A stretch of DNA of 64,000 bases from Microbacteriaceae bacterium (lineage in GTDB: Bacteria > Actinomycetota > Actinomycetes > Actinomycetales > Microbacteriaceae): NCBI GenBank assembly GCA_036510655.1, contig DATCDQ010000008.1:5101-69100 (forward strand), written 5' to 3'. Made by a program: the position numbers and the translations under genes. The number at the start of each line of letters is the position of its first letter. Position 1 is the stretch's first letter. The notes beneath the pieces were generated by a model. It did not search any database. It had not been told where the DNA came from and was given only the letters and a program-made list of their open reading frames with translations. Positions 3,611-56,725 of the stretch are shown in pieces.

Positions 3611-3686
3611 CGCCGGTGAAACACGGATGGCAGGTGAAACACGAATGGCCGGTGAAACACGGCTTGCCGGTGAAACACGGCTTGAC
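3611..3686. repeat. 4 x 18-bp tandem direct repeat (core GGTGAAACACG)
   Basis: Cores at 3615, 3633, 3651 and 3669 with an exact 18-bp period. Lies in the divergent spacer between the PRC-like gene and the pRiA4b-ORF3-like gene. Confidence 0.9.
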
Positions 3687-9498: not shown

Positions 9499-9711
9499 TT
9501 ACTCCCGGCGCCGCAACCGGAACACGTCGAACAGCACGCGCAGCACAAGCAGCGCCGCGAGCACGATGAGCGTGTAGCCGAAGATCTGATACAGGCTCAG
9601 GGTCGGAGTGACCTCCGGCCCACCGCCGCTGATCAGCAGCAGTGTCGCCATGATGCCCGCGACGCCCGCCAGGAATGCCAGCACGGCCTCATTCACCAGG
9701 CTGCGGATCAT
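9499..9711 (-). CDS. Possible small membrane protein
   Basis: MIRSLVNEAVLAFLAGVAGIMATLLLISGG...IFGYTLIVLAALLVLRVLF gives two predicted TM helices. No homology recognised. Confidence 0.3.
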   Translation of the reverse strand: MIRSLVNEAVLAFLAGVAGIMATLLLISGGGPEVTPTLSLYQIFGYTLIVLAALLVLRVLFDVFRLRRRE

Positions 9712-9755
9712 GCCTCGGTCGCGGCGGTCCTTCCATGCGTTGAGCCTACGATGCC

Positions 9756-10988
9756 TCAAACCTTTGTCGACGCCGTCACCGTGAACTTCTCGTTGCGACC
9801 GATCTGGCGAGTCGGGCCGACAAACCGGCGCAACATCTGTTGATAGGCCAGATGCGAGTTGAAGACTGTCCACAACTCGCCGCCCGCTGCGAGCACTCGG
9901 CCAGCGTCTTCGATGAGCTTCAACCCGGCGCTTGCGTGCACGGCCGTGCCCACATGAAAGGGCGGGTTCAGCAGGATCAGCTCTGCGGATGCATCCGGCC
10001 GGCTTGCCAACGCGTCATCGCGTAGCGCCGCGACCCGATCGGCAACACCGTTCGCCTGCGCGGTGGCTCGGGCGGATGCGATAGCCGCCGCCGACTGGTC
10101 CGTCGCCAGCACGCGGATGCCCGGGCGCGCTTTCGCGAGCGCGACCGCCAAGATGCCGGTGCCACATCCGAGATCGATGGCGGATGCCGCATCCGGCTTC
10201 GCCTGCTCGAGGAAGCCGAGTAGAAAGCGGGTACCGAGGTCGACAGTCGTGCCCGCGAACGCGGCGCCGTGGGCGCAGACCCACAGGTCAAGGTCGGCGT
10301 GAAACTCCCGTCGTGGCCACTCACCGTTGGCCGCGGCTTCCGGTCCCTGGGCTTGTCGAAGGGCGCGCGTATTGAGACCACCTCGCACGGCCCCCAGAGG
10401 GGTCTCGATACGCTCGTTCCTCGCTACTCGACCACCGGAGACCGTGAGCACCCGGGCCTTCTGGCGGGCGAGCCCTGCCTGCACGTCGCTGAGCGACACC
10501 GCGAGCACGTCGTTCATCGACCGAGTCATGTGCTTGAGCATTCCACCGGCATAGACGGTTACATCCTCGGCGGCGTAACGTGCGATGGTCTGGGCGAGCT
10601 CTTCCAGGGCGGCCAGGCTCTTCGGCAGCCGCAGGAGCACGATCCGAGCGCCGGCCAACAACTCGGCGTCGAGGTCATGCGACGTGTACACACCGTCAAG
10701 CCCGAATCGCGCCGCATTCTCAGCCAGCGCCCGTTCGCCGGTCAGCGGATCCTGATGCGCGCGGATGCCGCGCACCCCGTGCAGCGCAGCAGCCCCGAGG
10801 GTGAGCGCGCCGTAGTTGTCCCCGATCACGACGACCTGGCCGGGTGTGGAAACCGCAAGTGCGTCGGCCGCGACGTCAAGGATCAGCCGGTCGGCGGCAT
10901 CCGCTGCGAACAGGTTCGCCGCTTCAACGTCGGGATGCCGACGCAACGCGTCGAACGAGATCGGTACCGGTTCGGGAATTACTCTCAC
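9756..10988 (-). CDS. Two-domain class I SAM methyltransferase, RlmG/RsmC-like (rRNA m2G type)
   Basis: The C-terminal domain has IDLGCGTGILAVAL (motif I) and LILLNPPFH (NPPF/Y catalytic motif). The N-terminal domain is a non-catalytic duplicate. It carries an in-frame repeat-derived insert (see findings). Confidence 0.75.
   Translation of the reverse strand: MRVIPEPVPISFDALRRHPDVEAANLFAADAADRLILDVAADALAVSTPGQVVVIGDNYGALTLGAAALHGVRGIRAHQDPLTGERALAENAARFGLDGVYTSHDLDAELLAGARIVLLRLPKSLAALEELAQTIARYAAEDVTVYAGGMLKHMTRSMNDVLAVSLSDVQAGLARQKARVLTVSGGRVARNERIETPLGAVRGGLNTRALRQAQGPEAAANGEWPRREFHADLDLWVCAHGAAFAGTTVDLGTRFLLGFLEQAKPDAASAIDLGCGTGILAVALAKARPGIRVLATDQSAAAIASARATAQANGVADRVAALRDDALASRPDASAELILLNPPFHVGTAVHASAGLKLIEDAGRVLAAGGELWTVFNSHLAYQQMLRRFVGPTRQIGRNEKFTVTASTKV
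10335..10433. repeat. Composite dispersed-repeat insert inside the methyltransferase CDS
   Basis: Contains GGGTCTCGATACGCTCGTTCCTCGCTACTCGACC (10400-10433), nearly identical to the reverse complement of the intergenic copy at 38925-38958, plus GGTCCCTGGGCTTGTCGAAGGG (10342-10363), the CCCTTCGACAAGCTCAGG-family module. Confidence 0.85.
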
Positions 10989-11012
10989 GCGCCCACGCTA
11001 CCTTCCCGTGAA

Positions 11013-11342
11013 TTGCCCCAAATGACCCTTCGCAGCTTGACAATGCCCGTCGTGGGGCCACGCACGGGTCGGGGCATGCCCCGCGGCTGCGAGGCGCGCC
11101 GAATTCAGGCTGGATGCGACATTTTTGGCAGGTTGCTGCCGCGAACCCCCGGTTCAGCCTGAATTTGGTCCGCGGGATGGCCGTAGCGACGATTTCGCTG
11201 GTCGAATAGCGCATGAGCGCAGCGAATGCGCGTATCGAGTCCCACACAGCGACGCAGCAGGTCTCGAGCCGCCACCCCCTCGGTGAGGTGCGGACTTGTG
11301 TCGCTTCCCGCGCTTCGAGAGCGACCGAAGTCCGCACCTCAC
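11013..11342. repeat. Intergenic cluster of four different palindromic/dispersed elements
   Basis: TTGCCCCAAATGACCCTTC at 11013-11031 (a second copy at 41466-41484). AATTCAGGCTG...CAGCCTGAATT inverted repeat at 11102-11165. Family-A REP at 11200-11243. Perfect 16-bp-stem hairpin GGTGAGGTGCGGACTT/AAGTCCGCACCTCACC at 11282-11342. Confidence 0.85.
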
Positions 11343-11381
11343 CGGGGGATGGGGATCTGGGTGCGGACGGTTGTGCCCGGG

Positions 11382-12440
11382 TCACCGGGCCTTGCCGGTC
11401 GACCCGCGAACGACCAGGGTCGTGGCGAGCTCTTCGCGCAAGACGTTTGGATGCGCACCCGACCGGATGCGCAGCAGCATTCTCAGCGCCGCCGCACCCA
11501 TTTCGGCGATCGGTTGCTGCACCGTGGTGAGCTGCGGACGCATCCATTGTGCTTCGGGCAGATCATCGAAACCGACCACGCTGACTTCGTCAGGGATGCC
11601 AAGCCCGAGCTCGGCCGCCGCGTCGTACACTCCAAGCGCCATCGTGTCGGAGCAGGCGAAGATCGCGGTCGGCCGAGCTGCCGTTCGCAGCAGGTCAGCG
11701 CTCAGCGCGGCAGCATCCGCCCGTCGCCAGTCCGCGTGGACTACTCGGTCGGCGGGCAACTCGAGACTGCCGTTCAATACGGCCGACCGAAAACCGTCGA
11801 TACGAGCCTGGCTGTACAGGTGTTCTCGTCGTCCACCGATGACGGCAAACCGTGTGTGTCCGAGGGCGATGAGGTGTTCGGCCGCAGCACGCCCGCCTCC
11901 CCAGTTGGTGGCCCCGACGCTGGCGACCGATTCCGGAGGTTGGCGCACCGGGTCGAGCAGCACGACCGGCACGTTCGCCGCTGCGAGCGTCGCGAGTTGA
12001 GGCCCCGTCGTGTCGACGAGCGCCAGAACGGCACCGCGCAGATTTCGCGCGAGCAGTCGCGCGAGCCAAGCGTCGTCCGGCACGCGTGCGACGGAGACAA
12101 CCAGATCGACGCCGGCCTGCACTGCAGCGCTCTCCACGCCGCTGAGTGCACGGTTCGACCAGGTCCCTTCTACGCTGCTGAGCACGAGATCGACGAGTGC
12201 CGCGGTTCCAAGTTGTCCGACCGCACGTTGCCCTCCTGCGCGTAGCCCGCTTACGTCGTGCCCGACGGCGCCATTCCCCGGTCGCCGCCGGTAGTCGACC
12301 TCCTCAAGGATGCCCATGATCCGCGAGCGCAGTTCAGCCGACACATCCGCTCGACCGTTGAGCACTTTCGACACGGTGGGGACGGTCGTTCCGGCTCGCC
12401 GAGCGACGTCCGCCAGTGTAATTCGACGACGTGCTGCCAT
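11382..12440 (-). CDS. LacI family transcriptional regulator
   Basis: N-terminal ITLADVARRAGTTVPTVSKVLNGR HTH followed by a periplasmic-binding-protein-like sugar-binding domain. Confidence 0.9.
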   Translation of the reverse strand: MAARRRITLADVARRAGTTVPTVSKVLNGRADVSAELRSRIMGILEEVDYRRRPGNGAVGHDVSGLRAGGQRAVGQLGTAALVDLVLSSVEGTWSNRALSGVESAAVQAGVDLVVSVARVPDDAWLARLLARNLRGAVLALVDTTGPQLATLAAANVPVVLLDPVRQPPESVASVGATNWGGGRAAAEHLIALGHTRFAVIGGRREHLYSQARIDGFRSAVLNGSLELPADRVVHADWRRADAAALSADLLRTAARPTAIFACSDTMALGVYDAAAELGLGIPDEVSVVGFDDLPEAQWMRPQLTTVQQPIAEMGAAALRMLLRIRSGAHPNVLREELATTLVVRGSTGKAR

Positions 12441-23724: not shown

Positions 23725-24582
23725 ATGACGAGGATCGGCGTGCAGGGAACCTTGCTCGTGGACGAGATCGCACGGTCGGGGATCTTCGAGACTCTCCGCT
23801 CGGTGAGCAAGATCGGCTATCACGCGCTCGAAGTCGCCGGTATGGCGATGACGCCCGAGAACGTCGCGGAGCTGGAGAGGGCGCGCACAGAACTCGGCAT
23901 GGACATCGCCTCGATCTCGGGGTCGCTTGCACCCGCAGGAAGCGGCGGCGAATCACTGACGACCCAGTTCGACAAGTACGTCGATGACGCTCAGCGACTC
24001 GGTGCGACCATGATCAGGGTCGGCATGCTTCCGGCTGAGGCCATGGCGTCGACGGCAATGCTGCTCGAGTTCTGCGATCGCAGCAACGACGTGGCCGCGC
24101 GGCTTCGAGAGCACGGCATCAGGCTGTACTACCACAACCACCACATCGACTTCACGAAGTACGACGGGCGGTACTTACTGGACGTTATCGCGGAACGCGC
24201 TCCGCTGGTCGGCTTCGAAGTCGACGTGCACTGGGTGCAGCGCGGTGGCCTCGACCCGGTCGCCACGCTGAAGAAGTATGGAGAGCGCGTCGCCATGGTT
24301 CACCTGAAGGACTACCGGATCGGGCGCATCTCCGCCAGTGCGTTCGACGAGCTCGACGCGGGTGACCGAACCGCCTTCAATGCTGAACTGGCCACGGTGG
24401 TGCAGTTTGCCGAAGTCGGCGAAGGCAACCTCGACTTCGCTTCGATCATTCCGGTGAGTCAGCAGATCGGCGCGCAGTATTTGCTCGTCGAGCAAGACGA
24501 ACACTACGGTCGCACACCGCTCGAGTGTCTGCAGACCTCTTACGACAACATTGTCGCGCTGGGCTACGGACACCTGTTCTAG
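23725..24582 (+). CDS. Sugar phosphate isomerase/epimerase (xylose isomerase-like TIM barrel)
   Basis: 285 aa. VHLKDY and EVGEGNLDF motifs are typical of AP-endonuclease-2/xylose-isomerase-like barrels. Confidence 0.75.
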   Translation: MTRIGVQGTLLVDEIARSGIFETLRSVSKIGYHALEVAGMAMTPENVAELERARTELGMDIASISGSLAPAGSGGESLTTQFDKYVDDAQRLGATMIRVGMLPAEAMASTAMLLEFCDRSNDVAARLREHGIRLYYHNHHIDFTKYDGRYLLDVIAERAPLVGFEVDVHWVQRGGLDPVATLKKYGERVAMVHLKDYRIGRISASAFDELDAGDRTAFNAELATVVQFAEVGEGNLDFASIIPVSQQIGAQYLLVEQDEHYGRTPLECLQTSYDNIVALGYGHLF

Positions 24583-24638
24583 CCCTGCCGCGGCCTTCAC
24601 AGCACAACCTTGACAGCAAAACGAATGGAGCAATTTTC

Positions 24639-25808
24639 GTGGCGGACAACGTACGTTTGGGCATCATTGGGCTCGGAATACAAGGGTCGATCTATGCGAG
24701 ATACCTCGCCGATGCGTTGATACCAGAACTGACCCTCGGCGCCATCGCCGACACCGATCCGGCGAAAGCCGCCATCGCGGCCGCGGACTACCCGGGTGTG
24801 CCCTTCTTCGATGACTACGTCTCCCTGCTCGATTCCGGCACGGTCGACGCGGTCGTCACGACCGTTCCGCACTATTTGCACCCCCAGATCGGCATCGATG
24901 CGCTGGAACGGAGCATCCATGTGCTGATCGAGAAACCGGCCGGCGTCTACACGAAACAGGTTGCGGAACTGAACGCCTTCGCGGCGACCAAACCCGATCT
25001 GACGTTCGCCATTATGTTCAACCAGCGAAACAACCCGCTCTATCGCAGGCTCAAGGAGATTGTCGCGAACGGTGAAATCGGGGCCATCCGGCGCACCAAC
25101 TGGATCATCACCACCTGGTGGCGCACGCAGGGCTATTACGATCAGAGCGCGTGGCGCGCCACCTGGGGCGGAGAAGGCGGCGGGGTGCTGGTCAACCAGG
25201 CGCCGCATCAACTCGATCTGTGGCAGTGGATCTGCGGCGTTCCGAAGTCCGTGTACTCCAAGGTCGCGTACGGGTTCCGCCGCGACATCGCCGTCGAAGA
25301 CGAGGTGACGGCCCTCGTCGACTACGGCAACGGAGCAACCGGCGTATTCGTTACTGCCACACACGACATGATCGGCACCGACCGGCTGGAGATCCTCGGC
25401 GACCAGGGCAAGATCGTCGTCGAAGACAGCAAAACGGCGACGGTCACGCGATTCGCAAAACCCGAACGAGAACTCAGCGGCGTCCACCACGACGAGTACT
25501 TTTCCGAAGGTCGCACCGCCGCGGACTATTCCACGGAAGAGACGATCGAGTTCGAATCAGCGTGGGGCGACCAGCACGCGGGCGTATTGCAGAACTTCGC
25601 TGCGCACATCCTGCATGGAACGCCGTTGTTCGCGCCCGGGTCCGACGGCATCATGGGTGTTCGGCTCGCCAACGCGATCCACCTCTCCAGCTGGCTCGGC
25701 AAGGAGGTTCCGCTGGATTTCGACGACGACGAGTTTCTCGCACTATTGAACGAGCGCATCCGCGATGAGGGAAAATATCCCGAATCACTGCTCCCGGTGG
25801 TCGAGTAG
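24639..25808 (+). CDS. Gfo/Idh/MocA family oxidoreductase
   Basis: VRLGIIGLGIQGSIY Rossmann start and EKPAG motif. The GTG at 24639 has GGAG 8 nt upstream. The last two codons and the stop lie inside a REP element. Confidence 0.85.
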   Translation: MADNVRLGIIGLGIQGSIYARYLADALIPELTLGAIADTDPAKAAIAAADYPGVPFFDDYVSLLDSGTVDAVVTTVPHYLHPQIGIDALERSIHVLIEKPAGVYTKQVAELNAFAATKPDLTFAIMFNQRNNPLYRRLKEIVANGEIGAIRRTNWIITTWWRTQGYYDQSAWRATWGGEGGGVLVNQAPHQLDLWQWICGVPKSVYSKVAYGFRRDIAVEDEVTALVDYGNGATGVFVTATHDMIGTDRLEILGDQGKIVVEDSKTATVTRFAKPERELSGVHHDEYFSEGRTAADYSTEETIEFESAWGDQHAGVLQNFAAHILHGTPLFAPGSDGIMGVRLANAIHLSSWLGKEVPLDFDDDEFLALLNERIRDEGKYPESLLPVVE

Positions 25809-25900
25809 CGCATGAGCGCAGCGAATACGCGTATCGAGACCCACACAGGCGTCGATGGGTCTCGATACGCCCGCTCGCTGCGCTCGCAGGCTACTCGACC
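25799..25900. repeat. Inverted pair of family-A REP-like elements (25799-25842 and 25858-25900)
   Basis: GGTCGAGTAGCGCATGAGCGCAGCGAATACGCGTATCGAGACCC and its near reverse complement. Both convergent genes stop inside the outer arms. Confidence 0.9.
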
Positions 25901-27288
25901 AACGACTCCTGGTAGCGAAAGCTCGCGCCCTTGTGCTCGGCGGGCAGCCGGTCGCCACGTCCGTGCAGCTTCTGCCGGAGCGTACCCGGCGTGTACTCCG
26001 TCTGGTACGCACCGCGCTTCTGCAGTTCGGGGACGACGAATTCCACAACGTCCTCGAACGTCCCGGGTGTGATGGCGTATGCAAGGTTAAAGCCGTCGAC
26101 ATCCGTCTCGGCCACCCACTCCTGAAGCTGGTCCGCGATCTCCGCGCCCGACCCGACGATGAACGGCCCAAGCCCGCCGATCGCACCTTGCGTGCCGATG
26201 TCGCCGACGGTCCACTCGCCGCCGTCTTCGTTGGCTCGCTGATAGTTGGCGACGACCGACTGGATGGCGTTGCTCTTCACGTTGCCGATCGGCTCGTCCA
26301 GACCATACCCGGAGAGGTCGACGCCCATCCAGCCAGACATGAACGTGAGCGCACCCTCCGCGGACGCGTACGACAGATAGTCCTCGTATTTGGCCTGGGC
26401 CTTCTCGGGCGTGGCATCCGTGATGATCGTGAGCAACGTGTATATCCGCGCCGAGTAACGTCCGCGGCCGGCTGCCTCCAACGCATCCCGGATCTTCGTC
26501 ACCGTTGCCTTCAGGCCTTCTTTGGTCGAGGCCGCCACGAAGATCGCCTCCGCGTTGCCGGCCGCGAACGCGATGCCGCGGGAGGATGCGCCGGCCTGGT
26601 AGATCACCGGCGAACGCTGCGGGCTCGGCTCCGAGATGTGGATGCCGGGCACCGTGAAGTTCTTGCCGTAGTGCCCGATTTCGTGCACCTTGCTCGGGTC
26701 GGTGAACACGCCGCTCTCACGATCGCGCACGACTGCGTCGTCTTCCCACGAGCCTTCCCACAGCTTGTAGAGCACCTCGAGGTATTCGTCCGCGTAGTCG
26801 TAGCGGTCGTCGTGCTCCAGCTGGTCGTCGTGACCCATGTTGCGCGCGGCCGACGGCAGGTAGCCGGTGACGACGTTCCACCCGATCCGCCCCTTGGTCA
26901 AGTGGTCGAGCGTGGACATCCGTCGGGCGAACGGATACGGATGCTCGTACGCCGTCCCAGCCGTCACCCCGAACCCGAGATTCTTGGTGACCAGCGCCAT
27001 CGCCGAGATGAGCATCAAGGGGTCGCCGACCGGCACCTGCGCGCCGTGCTTGATCGCAGCTTCGTTGTTGCCGCCGTACACGTCGTAGGTACCGAGCACA
27101 TCGGCGATGAAGATGCCGTCGAACTTGCCGCGCTCCAACAGCTTGGCCAATTCCGTCCAGTACTCCAGGTCGGTATAGCTGGCCGACCGGTCGTCCGGAT
27201 GCCGCCACAGCCCCGAGGACTGGTGCGCGACACAGTTCATGTCGAACGCGTTGAAACGGATCTGGCGGGGCGTGTCGGTCTCAGGCAT
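25891..27288 (-). CDS. LLM-class flavin-dependent monooxygenase (NtaA/SnaA/DszA family)
   Basis: 465 aa, RQIRFNAFDMNCVAHQSSGLWRHPDD...GIFIADVLG, the typical N-terminus of the NtaA/DszA family. Confidence 0.85.
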   Translation of the reverse strand: MPETDTPRQIRFNAFDMNCVAHQSSGLWRHPDDRSASYTDLEYWTELAKLLERGKFDGIFIADVLGTYDVYGGNNEAAIKHGAQVPVGDPLMLISAMALVTKNLGFGVTAGTAYEHPYPFARRMSTLDHLTKGRIGWNVVTGYLPSAARNMGHDDQLEHDDRYDYADEYLEVLYKLWEGSWEDDAVVRDRESGVFTDPSKVHEIGHYGKNFTVPGIHISEPSPQRSPVIYQAGASSRGIAFAAGNAEAIFVAASTKEGLKATVTKIRDALEAAGRGRYSARIYTLLTIITDATPEKAQAKYEDYLSYASAEGALTFMSGWMGVDLSGYGLDEPIGNVKSNAIQSVVANYQRANEDGGEWTVGDIGTQGAIGGLGPFIVGSGAEIADQLQEWVAETDVDGFNLAYAITPGTFEDVVEFVVPELQKRGAYQTEYTPGTLRQKLHGRGDRLPAEHKGASFRYQESLVE

Positions 27289-29483: not shown

Positions 29484-29506
29484 GGCGCCTCCTTTCTGAG
29501 ATTGGT

Positions 29507-29614
29507 GGTCGAGTAGCGAGGAGCAAGCGTATCGAGACCCGTATCGAGACCCCGGAATTGTTGCCTCCGGGGGTCTCGATACGGCTGCTCGCTATGCTCG
29601 CGGCCTACTCGACC
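29507..29614. repeat. Family-A REP-like inverted pair inside the dnaK operon (29507-29540, 29569-29614; extra half-site at 29541-29553)
   Basis: GGTCGAGTAGCGAGGAGCAAGCGTATCGAGACCC ... GGGGGTCTCGATACGGCTGCTCGCTATGCTCGCGGCCTACTCGACC. Confidence 0.9.
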
Positions 29615-29634
29615 AGCGAGACCAACGACTGCTA

Positions 29635-33124: not shown

Positions 33125-33285
33125 TCATTTTTGCTATTTCAGATCCGCCCTATATAAAGCAGAGCTGAAATAGCGAAAACGGACACGCACTTTGCCGGGC
33201 GAGACCGCTTCGCCCGCTGCCCTTCGACAAGCTCAGGAACCGCGCTGTAGCCGAAGCGCCAGCCCGCAGCGCCGAACGAACACGC
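33125..33285. repeat. Composite ~160-bp dispersed repeat with an AT-rich core, inverted copy of 53424-53632
   Basis: The reverse complement aligns by eye to 53424-53632: GGCTGGCGCTTCGGCT, CCTGAGCTTGTCGAAGGGCAG, CAAAGTGC, GTTTTCGCT, TTATATAGGGCGGATCTGAAATA. Confidence 0.85.
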
Positions 33286-33355
33286 GGTACACAGTTGCCC
33301 TTCGGCTACGCCCAGGGCGCGGGCAGACCTCGGTCACCTGCCTGCATCCTCGCCC

Positions 33356-34432: not shown

Positions 34433-34454
34433 ATTGGCTGGCGTGCGTCGATGC

Positions 34455-34498
34455 GGGTCTCGATACGCCTGCTCGCTACGCTCGCGGGCTACTCGACC
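34455..34498. repeat. Family-A REP-like element
   Basis: GGGTCTCGATACGCCTGCTCGCTACGCTCGCGGGCTACTCGACC, between the lplA start and the beta-glucosidase stop. Confidence 0.9.
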
Positions 34499-34508
34499 AC
34501 CGGACGCC

Positions 34509-38908: not shown

Positions 38909-38924
38909 CCCTGGCCCGCACGGT

Positions 38925-38958
38925 GGTCGAGTAGCGAGGAACGAGCGTATCGAGACCC
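38925..38958. repeat. Family-A REP-like element (short form)
   Basis: GGTCGAGTAGCGAGGAACGAGCGTATCGAGACCC. Confidence 0.9.
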
Positions 38959-42729: not shown

Positions 42730-43155
42730 GTGCGCATCTATGTCGGCAGCAGTGCGCTGATCAAACGCGTTGTCGCCGAGCCGGAATCTGATGTGCTCGT
42801 CAGCTACCTTGAGCAATGCGTAGGGGACGGGAACGTCCTCGTCAGTTCTTCGCTTGCGTGGGTCGAAGTGACGCGCGCGCTGCGCACGCGGCTGGACCAC
42901 GAACATCCGTCGACGATCACAGAACTGGCGGATGTCGCGTTGTCCGGCATCTCCGAATTCTCACTGGATGCTCGCGTTGTCGCGCTTGCCCGCCGCATCG
43001 GGCCGCCGATCCTTCGAACTTTGGATGCGCTTCATCTCGCGAGCGCGACCCTGCTCGACGCAGATGTCATGGTCGTGTACAATCAGCGTCTCGCTGCCGC
43101 TGCCGACGAACTCGGCATCCGAACGATTGCGCCGGGGGCTTCGCCGGTCGAGTAA
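42730..43155 (+). CDS. vapC: Type II toxin VapC (PIN domain)
   Basis: IYVGSSALIKRVVAE...LRTLDALHLASA...VVYNQRL. The final GTC GAG TAA lies in a REP element. Confidence 0.8.
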   Translation: MRIYVGSSALIKRVVAEPESDVLVSYLEQCVGDGNVLVSSSLAWVEVTRALRTRLDHEHPSTITELADVALSGISEFSLDARVVALARRIGPPILRTLDALHLASATLLDADVMVVYNQRLAAAADELGIRTIAPGASPVE

Positions 43156-43189
43156 CCCGCGAGCGCAGCGAGCGAGCGTATCGAGACCC
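43146..43189. repeat. Family-A REP-like element
   Basis: GGTCGAGTAACCCGCGAGCGCAGCGAGCGAGCGTATCGAGACCC. Confidence 0.9.
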
Positions 43190-43202
43190 CGTTCGCCGGT
43201 TG

Positions 43203-53319: not shown

Positions 53320-53423
53320 TCGCTTCTTCGGGTTCGGTCTGGCTGAAGAGCGATTCACGAGGACCCGAAAGGCGGCGCGGCGGCGCTCCCTGAGCGAAGC
53401 CGAAGGGCGGCTGTATAGGGCCT

Positions 53424-53632
53424 GTTCGTGAGGCGCTGCAGGCTGGCGCTTCGGCTTCGCTCAGCGAACGGTGTCGAGTGCAGGCTGGCGCTTCGGCTGC
53501 AGCGCGGTGCCTGAGCTTGTCGAAGGGCAGCCTACGACGACGTGTCGCCCAGCAAAGTGCATGTCTGTTTTCGCTTTATCAGATCCGCCTTATATAGGGC
53601 GGATCTGAAATAAGAAAAACGGACGGACTGTT
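53424..53632. repeat. Composite ~210-bp dispersed repeat with a ~54-bp AT-rich near-perfect palindrome
   Basis: GTTTTCGCTTTATCAGATCCGCC-TTATATA-GGGCGGATCTGAAATAAGAAAAAC at about 53567-53620. Flanked by GC-rich modules (GGCTGGCGCTTCGGCT x2, CCTGAGCTTGTCGAAGGGCAG). A partial copy also lies at about 7610-7690. Confidence 0.85.
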
Positions 53633-53821
53633 TCCTGAGCAGGTCCGAAGGGCTGGTTTGCTCGTTCCCTGAGCGGAGTCGACCGGGGACTCGGCCAGCG
53701 ACCGATAGACTCGCTCAGCGACCGGGAGTTGCAGGCGCCTTGAATCATGCGGCCGGCTCACATCCTGCGCGCCTAACGTGTGGGGCGAACAGCTTGCGCA
53801 CATCGAGAGGGACACACCACC

Positions 53822-55285: not shown

Positions 55286-55361
55286 GTCACCAGACTGCGG
55301 CAAGCGTGACGGGTTGAACCCGTCGTACTGCTGTCAGCAGATCTGCTGACAGCAGACAGCC

Positions 55362-55468
55362 GTCTCGATACGCGGATTCGCTGCGCTCATGCGCTACTCG
55401 ACGAACGGTACCGGTGGTCGAGTAGCCCGCGAGCGCAGCGAGCGAGCGTATCGAGACCCGTGCAGTTC
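55362..55468. repeat. Family-A REP-like inverted pair (55362-55402 and 55425-55468)
   Basis: GTCTCGATACGCGGATTCGCTGCGCTCATGCGCTACTCGAC ... GGTCGAGTAGCCCGCGAGCGCAGCGAGCGAGCGTATCGAGACCC. Confidence 0.9.
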
Positions 55469-56637: not shown

Positions 56638-56652
56638 GCGAGTGACCTCTCT

Positions 56653-56708
56653 GGGTTGACCGTTTTGGGTTGACCGTTTTGGGTTGACCGTTTTGGGCTG
56701 ACCGTTCT
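56653..56708. repeat. 4 x 14-bp tandem repeat GGGTTGACCGTTTT
   Basis: Three perfect units plus one variant (GGGCTGACCGTTCT). Ends 16 nt upstream of the lyase start codon on the coding (-) strand, between the CoA-transferase and the lyase. Confidence 0.9.
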
Positions 56709-56725
56709 GACGTGGCCGCCGCGCT

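Follow-up and report, generated by a model that had tools for sequence, protein, structure and literature searches.

The locus described here raises the question of how a palindromic repeat that is otherwise found between genes came to be read within the coding frame of a conserved enzyme, and of what became of the enzyme thereby. It lies in a stretch of 64,000 nucleotides (64% GC) from a Microbacteriaceae bacterium, hereafter referred to as the window, and all copy counts given below refer to these 64 kb of the source genome. The gene in question (9756..10988, minus strand, as taken from the ORF list of the window) encodes a two-domain, 410-amino acid methyltransferase of the RlmG/RsmC type, and the segment 10340-10437 within it was found to be assembled from parts of two dispersed repeat families, here named A and B, which elsewhere are intergenic. 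The initial annotation of this DNA had placed a composite repeat in frame within this gene, which was borne out, and had reasoned that an element resembling repetitive extragenic palindromic (REP) sequences or miniature transposable elements with inverted repeats (MITEs) was exapted as an interdomain linker. Considering the evidence set out below, the insert is very probably a degraded inverted doublet of a lineage-specific repeat A, similar to REPs and to REP doublets forming hairpins (REPINs), which became fused to a B unit and is carried as a tolerated passenger in a permissive linker.

Composition of the insert and integrity of its host

Family A follows the scheme CGGTGGTCGAGTAGC-loop-GCGTATCGAGACCC, and family B, of which the window holds three copies, is characterized by CCGGTCCCTGAGCTTGTCGAAGGGC. 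The initial annotation had described positions 10400-10433 as nearly identical to the reverse complement of the intergenic positions 38925-38958; the match turned out to be exact (34/34) and to extend to 38/38 when 10400-10437 is compared with 38921-38958. A third copy of the 34-nt string, carrying two mismatches, locates to 29507-29540, and no match to the string was obtained in 100 dinucleotide-preserving shuffles. The second module, 10342-10363, had likewise been recognized at two further places; this held true with two mismatches each (20/22), the matching positions being 33220-33241 (minus strand) and 53506-53527 (plus strand), a few bases off from those given initially. For this match, too, the shuffles gave a chance expectation of none.

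Judged from its sequence, the insert corresponds to the convergent A doublets starting at 25795 and 29504, except that the B unit has taken the place of one arm's outer half (its parts are listed in Table 1). The partner fragment contains GCGTATTGAGACC, which deviates from the A-right motif by one mismatch, and is arranged convergently as are the units at 25799/25858 and 29507/29572. The inner arms of the in-gene doublet still pair; the segment as a whole, however, folds barely better than shuffles (z-score -1.7 as DNA and -0.9 as RNA). The in-gene copy measures 96 nt, a multiple of three, whereas the intergenic doublets of 100, 110 and 116 nt are not, and roughly half of the six frames of any element copy are free of stop codons. 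GC content at third codon positions (GC3) is 0.56 within the insert as compared to 0.78 in the remainder of the gene, and six of the 32 inserted residues are arginines. Both junctions of the insert carry CCGG, which is part of the element consensus, and the filled site of the window and the empty site of the closest insert-free ortholog (L082) share only about 75-79% nucleotide identity. A consensus scan of 9600-11400 identified neither promoter nor terminator, and a role of the in-gene hairpin as terminator or promoter is therefore unsupported.

Within the window, the gapped family A pattern (GGTCGAGTARC, 8-38 nt, GTATCGAGAC) matches eight times and is not found in shuffles, and a half-motif catalogue yielded 12 complete A units at eight loci. 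Seven of the eight loci are intergenic or touch only a stop codon, the methyltransferase copy being the sole intragenic one, which agrees with the earlier statement that the modules otherwise occur between genes. The gene map used for this assignment was based on GC3 and checked by Pfam; it is rough and contains some antisense shadow ORFs (e.g., 11226..12245, where the real gene is that of a LacI-family protein at 11382..12440 on the minus strand). The three inverted A doublets (25795-25904, 29504-29619 and 55361-55460) form long, near-perfect hairpins with folding free energies (dG) of -40 to -49 kcal/mol and z-scores from -6.9 to -10.4, whereas single A units fold no better than shuffles (z about 0).

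It had further been claimed that the TAG of this element terminates other genes and is skipped in the methyltransferase, and both parts hold. Translation of the convergent genes 24525..25808 (plus strand) and 25891..27288 (minus strand) ends in each case at the TAG contained in the GGTCGAGTAGC motif of the doublet 25795-25904, whereas the methyltransferase reads the same motif as GGT CGA GTA GCG, so that TAG is out of frame. The stop codons of the two convergent genes, 25806-25808 and 25891-25893, are the TAGs in the two arms of that doublet; the last three to four codons of the encoded GFO/IDH/MocA oxidoreductase and luciferase-like monooxygenase are thus element-encoded, and the doublet hairpin lies exactly between the two genes.

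As to the host protein, its N-terminal domain ends with ARQKARVLT (at about residue 181) and its C-terminal catalytic domain starts with WPRREFH (residue 224), the peptide SGGRVARNERIETPLGAVRGGLNTRALRQAQGPEAAANGE occupying residues 184-223 in between. Pfam places an MTS domain (PF05175) at residues 235-405 (E 3e-44) and PF26049 (RLMG_N) is precomputed for the protein, giving the tandem order RLMG_N followed by MTS. With a profile built from 34 orthologs, a match spanning the two domains was obtained to RlmG of E. coli (4DCM; E 1e-47), and a Foldseek search with the AlphaFold2 model returned 4DCM as the best hit (template modelling score 0.81), followed by RsmC (2PJD). The S-adenosylmethionine (SAM)-binding motif DxGxGxG (D272-L-G-C-G-T-G278) and the catalytic NPPF motif (N341-P-P-F344, within NPPFH) are invariant in the alignment of the 34 orthologs; every residue invariant among these is retained in the insert-bearing protein and the frame is open over its full length. 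The equivalog cut-offs of NCBIfam were missed (RlmG: 110.6 bits, cut-off 468; RsmC: 101 bits, cut-off 295), and the protein is therefore assigned, by sequence, to the RlmG/RsmC family at family level, without a target nucleotide.

With these two solved structures the host shares the tandem methyltransferase-fold domains, the short linker and the C-terminal location of the SAM-binding and NPPF motifs, whereas its identity to them is only 20-25% and neither 4DCM nor 2PJD possesses a comparable linker insert. In the AlphaFold2 model (mean predicted local distance difference test value, pLDDT, 84.5; predicted template modelling score 0.78) both domains were obtained with high confidence, and residues 191-220, which belong to the insert, form the sole internal run in which pLDDT stays below 50 over 30 residues or more. 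The insert residues are accordingly predicted to be disordered. Taken from sequence and model, the insert disrupts neither of the two folded domains nor the catalytic motifs, and the open reading frame predicts the insert to be translated in frame. Three other explanations for an extra segment in this gene were dismissed: a contig chimera, as the gene halves on either side of the insert are collinear with orthologs; an intein, as the insert comprises 32 residues and lacks intein motifs; and a programmed frameshift, as the frame is continuous.

The linker in orthologs and related lineages

Linker length was defined as the distance from the QKARV(L) motif to the AHGxxFAG motif and was determined in 166 related loci. 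In the window it amounts to 57 residues, as compared to 24-30 residues in Nocardia, Rhodococcus, Cryobacterium, Dermatophilaceae and many Microbacteriaceae. Among the 120 best homologs, both motifs were found in 109; here, lengths of 27-29 residues are the commonest and 37 of the 109 linkers are lengthened. The closest insert-free ortholog (P0009, encoded by L082; 69% identical) has a linker of 27 residues without any repeat DNA. By comparison of these sequences, the insert adds about 30 residues (approximately residues 186-217) to a short interdomain linker that existed before. The gap in orthologs at the position of the insert, which the initial annotation had expected to span 33-35 residues, is hence present and slightly shorter. 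Had distant actinobacteria possessed a homologous linker equal in length and sequence, the resemblance to the intergenic repeats would have been coincidental; no such linker was found, and the linkers of these orthologs show no similarity to the insert.

Comparison of the linker DNA from 17 loci showed that many lineages carry parts of the element at this position, yet in differing states. These comprise an 11-nt trace (GGTCGAGTAGC) in L001, a truncated unit in L162, A doublets in L161 and L169, one and a half doublets in L163, an A/B hybrid in L167, a perfect A hairpin with arms of 15 nt (15/15) in L170 and a perfect B doublet with arms of 19 nt (19/19) in L168. About 20 homologs share with the window protein the reading of the A-left motif as GRVA, GRVG or GRVT, whereas three others (P0003, P0005 and P0022) read it as WSSS; the remaining frame, in which TAG occurs, is used by none of the homologs examined. 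The same element DNA hence appears as GGRVA or as RWSSS, and likewise as GLDTL or RIET, in different orthologs, and family B is read as ALRQAQGP in the window, as PELVEG in P0035 (linker of L168) and as FDKLRDR in P0027 (linker of L167). An RNE(R) tripeptide recurs in the same frame in several orthologs. Because sister lineages read the same DNA in different frames, the peptide is not conserved; to judge from these sequences, conservation is at the DNA level.

The linker also differs between close relatives. The domains encoded by L161 and L162 are 99.8% identical, yet their linkers are separated by a 93-nt in-frame indel and about seven substitutions within 50 nt, and L164 and L165, which are about 99% identical, possess linkers of 120 and 63 nt, respectively. 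Moreover, the linker of each genome resembles the repeat type of that genome: the B unit is the dominant intergenic repeat in L167, and the linker of L167 carries B, 90% identical to its intergenic copies. Related inserts are present in independent assemblies (JGI, ENA, Logan and NCBI), and insert-bearing alleles span lineages whose proteins diverge by 25-35% with both domains conserved. For mapping the taxonomic range of the family, motif counts in the 166 related loci (938 kb) were unusable, because single 11-mer matches with one mismatch are at noise level there.

Two side observations concern the ortholog in L170. The conserved WP of WPRREFH is deleted beside its linker hairpin, and the methyltransferase ORF as called (VPRYSTG...) begins with codons supplied by an element fragment (GCCTCGCTACTCGACCGG) at 7098-7139 of L170.

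Origin of the insert and its possible explanations

Based on these data, the following course of events is suggested for the tolerated passenger. Either one doublet or an array of a few units would have entered the linker DNA in an ancestor of this Microbacteriaceae group, presumably by the mechanism through which the family spreads, be it a transposase or recombination. Subsequently, the segment would have behaved like an array, which may expand, contract and be overwritten by gene conversion or hairpin-mediated slippage, whereby selection on the downstream catalytic domain would let pass only stop-free variants with a length that is a multiple of three. No evidence was obtained for the insert being a functional adaptation, and a tolerated passenger in a permissive site fits the data better than exaptation, because the peptide is variable in frame, shows no GC3 bias and is predicted to be disordered. 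The earlier notion thus stands as far as the insertion of an element and the intact ORF are concerned; the term exapted was too strong for a site where a short linker was already present. That the linker copy survived because the site is permissive is supported by relative L171, where an array of the same family appears, as judged from sequence, to have truncated the malate synthase gene.

Several points weigh against this reading. Neither a transposase nor a target-site duplication nor a strain-level pair of empty and filled sites was found for the window genome, and the identity over 38 of 38 nucleotides is hard to square with an old insertion unless gene conversion or recent re-insertion is assumed. 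Most of the comparison sequences are metagenome contigs, in which hairpin repeats can be misassembled, and the sampling is biased in that only frame-preserving versions are retrievable as full-length proteins. Furthermore, the arginine-rich insert resides in an RNA-binding enzyme and may make a functional contribution.

The reading most directly opposed to a single ancient entry takes the linker as a targeted hot spot, which was occupied by site-specific insertion or gene conversion repeatedly and independently in many lineages; it is regarded as possible, if doubtful. A neighbour-joining tree of the proteins with masked linkers places the insert-bearing ones in at least four to five separate clades, interleaved with clades possessing plain linkers, but the tree was computed without a robustness test. 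One site of about 30 nt holds A doublets, a B doublet, A/B hybrids and, in L163 and L081, A units with A-reverse first, and the linkers differ even between the 99.8% identical strains. The likeness of the copies to the repeats of their own genomes (19/19 arms in L168, 15/15 in L170 and 38/38 in the window) suggests recent events. However, all members of the window's own clade except P0009 carry traces of the element, for which one gain and one loss are more parsimonious; the junctions fall on nearly the same nucleotide and the in-gene copies of the window, L161, L162, L163 and L169 have a AGGAACGAG loop variant in common, which fits common descent, and neither a targeting mechanism nor a target motif was identified. 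A broader form of the same idea, according to which the linker is a hot spot not only of repeated REP-like insertion but also of amplification, deletion and overwriting from genomic copies, is held to be unlikely. If true, the linker would be naturally hypervariable down to strains that are 99.8% identical, for which the mobilising enzyme would have to target the site specifically or gene conversion templated by hairpins would have to be frequent in coding DNA, and it would provide a natural system for watching non-coding repeats turn into peptide in several frames. Common descent within the clade is thus argued for by the conserved junctions, the shared loop variant and the parsimony count, recent exchange or re-insertion by the 38/38 match, the perfect arms of L168 and L170 and the linkers that match the repeats of their own genome; on the present sequence data both appear to contribute and the two are not separable.

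True exaptation, meaning that a longer, arginine-rich linker or an mRNA hairpin was selected for substrate reach, RNA binding or expression, seems improbable. The lengthening in 37 of 109 homologs, the six arginines among 32 residues and the recurrent RNE(R) tripeptide would be compatible with it, but the same DNA gives unrelated peptides in different frames and orientations, the insert is neither adapted in GC3 nor predicted to be ordered, L082 does without it and 31 residues were lost between near-identical strains. Selection for the hairpin meets the further difficulty that it is no more stable than shuffles, neither as RNA nor as DNA, and that the scan found no promoter or terminator consensus. 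That the opposite holds true and the insertion inactivated the enzyme, leaving a decaying pseudogene whose frame is open only for now, is very improbable: the same family can destroy genes, as suggested by the malate synthase of L171, which appears to be cut at about residue 345, yet the frame of the methyltransferase is of full length, all residues invariant in the 34 orthologs are kept including the SAM-binding and NPPF motifs, both domains are modelled confidently, and insert alleles persist across 25-35% protein divergence with conserved domains. Hardly credible, finally, are chance resemblance, the linker as source of the intergenic copies, or an assembly artefact. High-GC genomes do give many short random matches, and 11-mers with one or two mismatches are noise; exact matches of 34-38 nt and matches of 22 nt with two mismatches, however, never arise in shuffles. 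The segment is missing from orthologs outside the group, and the linker is therefore not the source of the intergenic copies, and an artefact is at odds with the related inserts in assemblies from four sources and with the collinear gene halves, which argue against a chimeric contig.

Returning to the tolerated passenger, its closest counterparts in outcome are the Rickettsia palindromic elements (RPEs), the classic case of in-frame palindromic repeats in protein genes (PMC10969869, citing Ogata et al. 2000, 2002). Like family A, RPEs are palindromic repeats of small size that are dispersed over intergenic regions and also reside in ORFs, where the frame is kept, the site is permissive and the host remains intact, and the methyltransferase insert is an in-frame insertion in the sense used for RPEs. 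Homology and host, however, do not fit: RPEs measure about 100-150 bp and reside in AT-rich alphaproteobacteria, whereas the family A unit is GC-rich, has about 40 nt (doublets about 100 nt) and occurs in Microbacteriaceae, no sequence relationship exists, and the window has a Microbacteriaceae-like host, 64% GC and no Rfam match. RPE families, moreover, encode a conserved peptide in one frame, whereas the family A DNA is read in at least two frames and in both orientations across orthologs, and nearly half of the 44 RPE copies of R. conorii lie in ORFs as compared to one of the eight family A loci of the window. By analogy, the outcome is RPE-like, and a phenomenon discussed chiefly for Rickettsia and for a few MITEs thereby gains an example from the Actinobacteria.

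In Proteobacteria, REP units are organised in bacterial interspersed mosaic elements (BIMEs). Like these and like REPs and REPINs, family A consists of GC-rich imperfect palindromes that occur as singlets, as hairpin-forming inverted doublets and as alternating clusters, mostly extragenic and near gene ends, with doublets being better conserved than singlets. By analogy, this occurrence close to gene ends in single, inverted double and alternating tandem form corresponds to the way in which REP, REPIN and BIME elements are organised (PMC3116915). When the definition of REPINs is applied (PMC3116915, PMC3337134), three of its four features are found in family A within the 64 kb, namely over-representation, hairpin-forming inverted doublets and extragenic bias; for the fourth, a cognate REP-associated tyrosine transposase (RAYT; Y1), no candidate is present among the ten element-adjacent genes of the window. 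Further differences are that REPs are extragenic by definition whereas the methyltransferase copy lies in coding DNA, that the host is an actinobacterium and that single family A units, unlike REPs, have no stable hairpin of their own.

Intragenic MITE-like repeats have been described for enterobacteria (ERIC, RU-1/2/3; PMC2759123), and in-frame fusions for other MITEs (PMC10969869). As does family A, ERIC, RU and other MITEs represent small, non-autonomous and usually intergenic elements which sometimes locate to genes, where they add peptide or stop codons. Yet family A units are much shorter and occupy the same site in many lineages, the A doublets are inverted repeats as a whole, for which no distinct terminal inverted repeats around a unique core were delimited, and no target-site duplication was established. 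Literature searches for the repeat cores and peptide signatures returned unrelated primer strings only, and those on REP/RAYT in Actinobacteria and on palindromic repeats in Microbacteriaceae returned nothing specific.

The methyltransferase gene thus represents a case, described at the nucleotide level and from a new phylum, of a normally extragenic palindromic repeat in the coding frame of a conserved housekeeping enzyme. It is unusual with respect to its phylum, in that the element is REP/BIME-like and is read in multiple frames, and in the recurrent, fast-changing occupancy of one linker. The comparative series, which ranges from nothing over a trace, a hairpin and a doublet to a small array in varied frames, suggests that only frame and absence of stop codons are selected, and it may serve as a natural experiment on linker tolerance and on the origin of new peptide sequence from selfish DNA. 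On the practical side, these repeats (signatures GRVA, WSSS, GLDTLAGARYSTT, PELVEG and FDKLRDR) inflate or truncate gene calls in Microbacteriaceae and should be recognised by annotators.

Element copies and neighbouring features in the window and in relatives

The positions of the element copies in the window are compiled in Table 1.

Table 1. Parts of the in-gene insert and further family A and family B copies in the window, ordered by position
Feature	Position	Strand	Unit in half-motif catalogue	Context and remarks
Family B unit of the insert, 25 nt (CCGGTCCCTGGGCTTGTCGAAGGGC)	10340..10364	+		Coding-strand reading ALRQAQGP; 20/22 to two window copies
Inverted partner fragment of the insert, right end of A unit only (GCGCGTATTGAGACCACC)	10365..10382	+		Pairs with right end of the complete unit in the fold
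Spacer of the insert, 16 nt	10383..10398	-		Hairpin loop between inverted halves in the fold of 10335-10441; intergenic doublet spacers 0-19 nt
Complete family A unit of the insert (CGGTGGTCGAGTAGCGAGGAACGAGCGTATCGAGACCCC on the coding strand)	10399..10437	-	10401-10433 (-)	Translated GGRVARNERIETP; 38/38 to 38921-38958
A unit and partial inverted partner	11196..11272	+	11200-11242 (+)	Between LacI-family gene and start of methyltransferase gene
A inverted doublet	25795..25904	.	25799-25841 (+)/25858-25900 (-)	Between convergent genes; hairpin dG -48.8 kcal/mol, z -10.4
A inverted doublet	29504..29619	.	29507-29551 (+)/29572-29614 (-)	grpE-dnaJ spacer, dnaK operon (DnaJ by Pfam); hairpin z -7.3
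Family B unit	33220..33241	-		Within larger intergenic composite repeat 33128-33321
A singlet	34452..34503	-	34456-34498 (-)	Intergenic
A singlet identical to in-gene unit	38921..38958	+	38925-38957 (+)	Intergenic, 39 nt upstream of NUDIX gene
A singlet	43141..43195	+	43146-43188 (+)	Intergenic
Family B unit	53506..53527	+		Within second composite-repeat copy 53384-53647
A inverted doublet, divergent arrangement	55361..55460	.	55361-55403 (-)/55416-55458 (+)	Intergenic, clpP / HMGL-like gene; hairpin z -6.9

A Pfam search of the ten element-adjacent genes of the window revealed no Y1/RAYT or other transposase, all of them being housekeeping genes, and an Rfam scan of the whole window matched one tRNA only and no repeat family. 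The composite repeat that harbours the two intergenic B units is present in two inverted, intergenic copies of about 140-260 nt (33128-33321 and 53384-53647) with 141-nt arms that are 86% complementary; besides the B unit it includes an AT-rich, near-perfect palindrome (TTTTCGCTATTTCAGATCCGCC..TATA..GGCGGATCTGAAATAGCGAAAA), despite the GC content of the genome.

A block of 14.6 kb is bracketed by the A units at 11196-11249 and 25795-25848, which are directly repeated and share 93% identity over 54 nt, the flank CCCACACAG included. The gene of the luciferase-like monooxygenase is located directly upstream of the methyltransferase gene in relatives L163 and L170, whereas in the window the two (25891..27288 and 9756..10988, respectively) are separated by exactly this block. 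Because the block separates genes that are adjacent in L163 and L170, the sequence comparison suggests that the block was inserted or rearranged, each of the two breakpoints being marked by an element copy.

In relatives, A units were also found as alternating tandem arrays, of about 0.86 kb in L171 (5020-5880) and about 2.3 kb in L172 (10054-12346). The array of L171 comprises about 15 alternating A units with a period of about 117 nt and follows approximately residue 345 of malate synthase; the malate synthase ORF stops on an element TAG, and no C-terminal part is found before the next gene (recQ). The array of L172 lies downstream of a LigD primase-polymerase gene, and P0121, an annotated 360-residue protein without domains that is called within this array, is element translation throughout. 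Concatenated element translations, when used as query against a database of 5.8 billion proteins, gave only five significant matches with two element arrays among the outcomes, which is to be read considering that peptides this short are unable to attain significance against so many sequences and that generality is not measurable in this way. In L167, the grpE-dnaJ spacer, which in the window holds an A doublet, carries a B unit, and further B units of L167 reside within the terminal codons of dnaK and the initial codons of grpE, both of which encode disordered tails (757-785, 801-829 and 1531-1556 for these B units of L167 taken together).

Beyond families A and B, short tandem repeats were identified in the window at 56643-56712 (five copies of a 14-nt unit, TGACCGTTTTGGGT), at 3612-3679 (three to four copies of an 18-nt unit, GCCGGTGAAACACGGATG) and at 651-728 (unit of about 19-30 nt, CACGCTCGTCCGTTTCAGGCACG). 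Next to the methyltransferase gene, a 124-residue ORF (9499-9873, minus strand), for which Pfam returned no match, shares 118 nt (9756-9873) with the 3' end of that gene; its C-terminal half is hydrophobic and it putatively encodes a small membrane protein.

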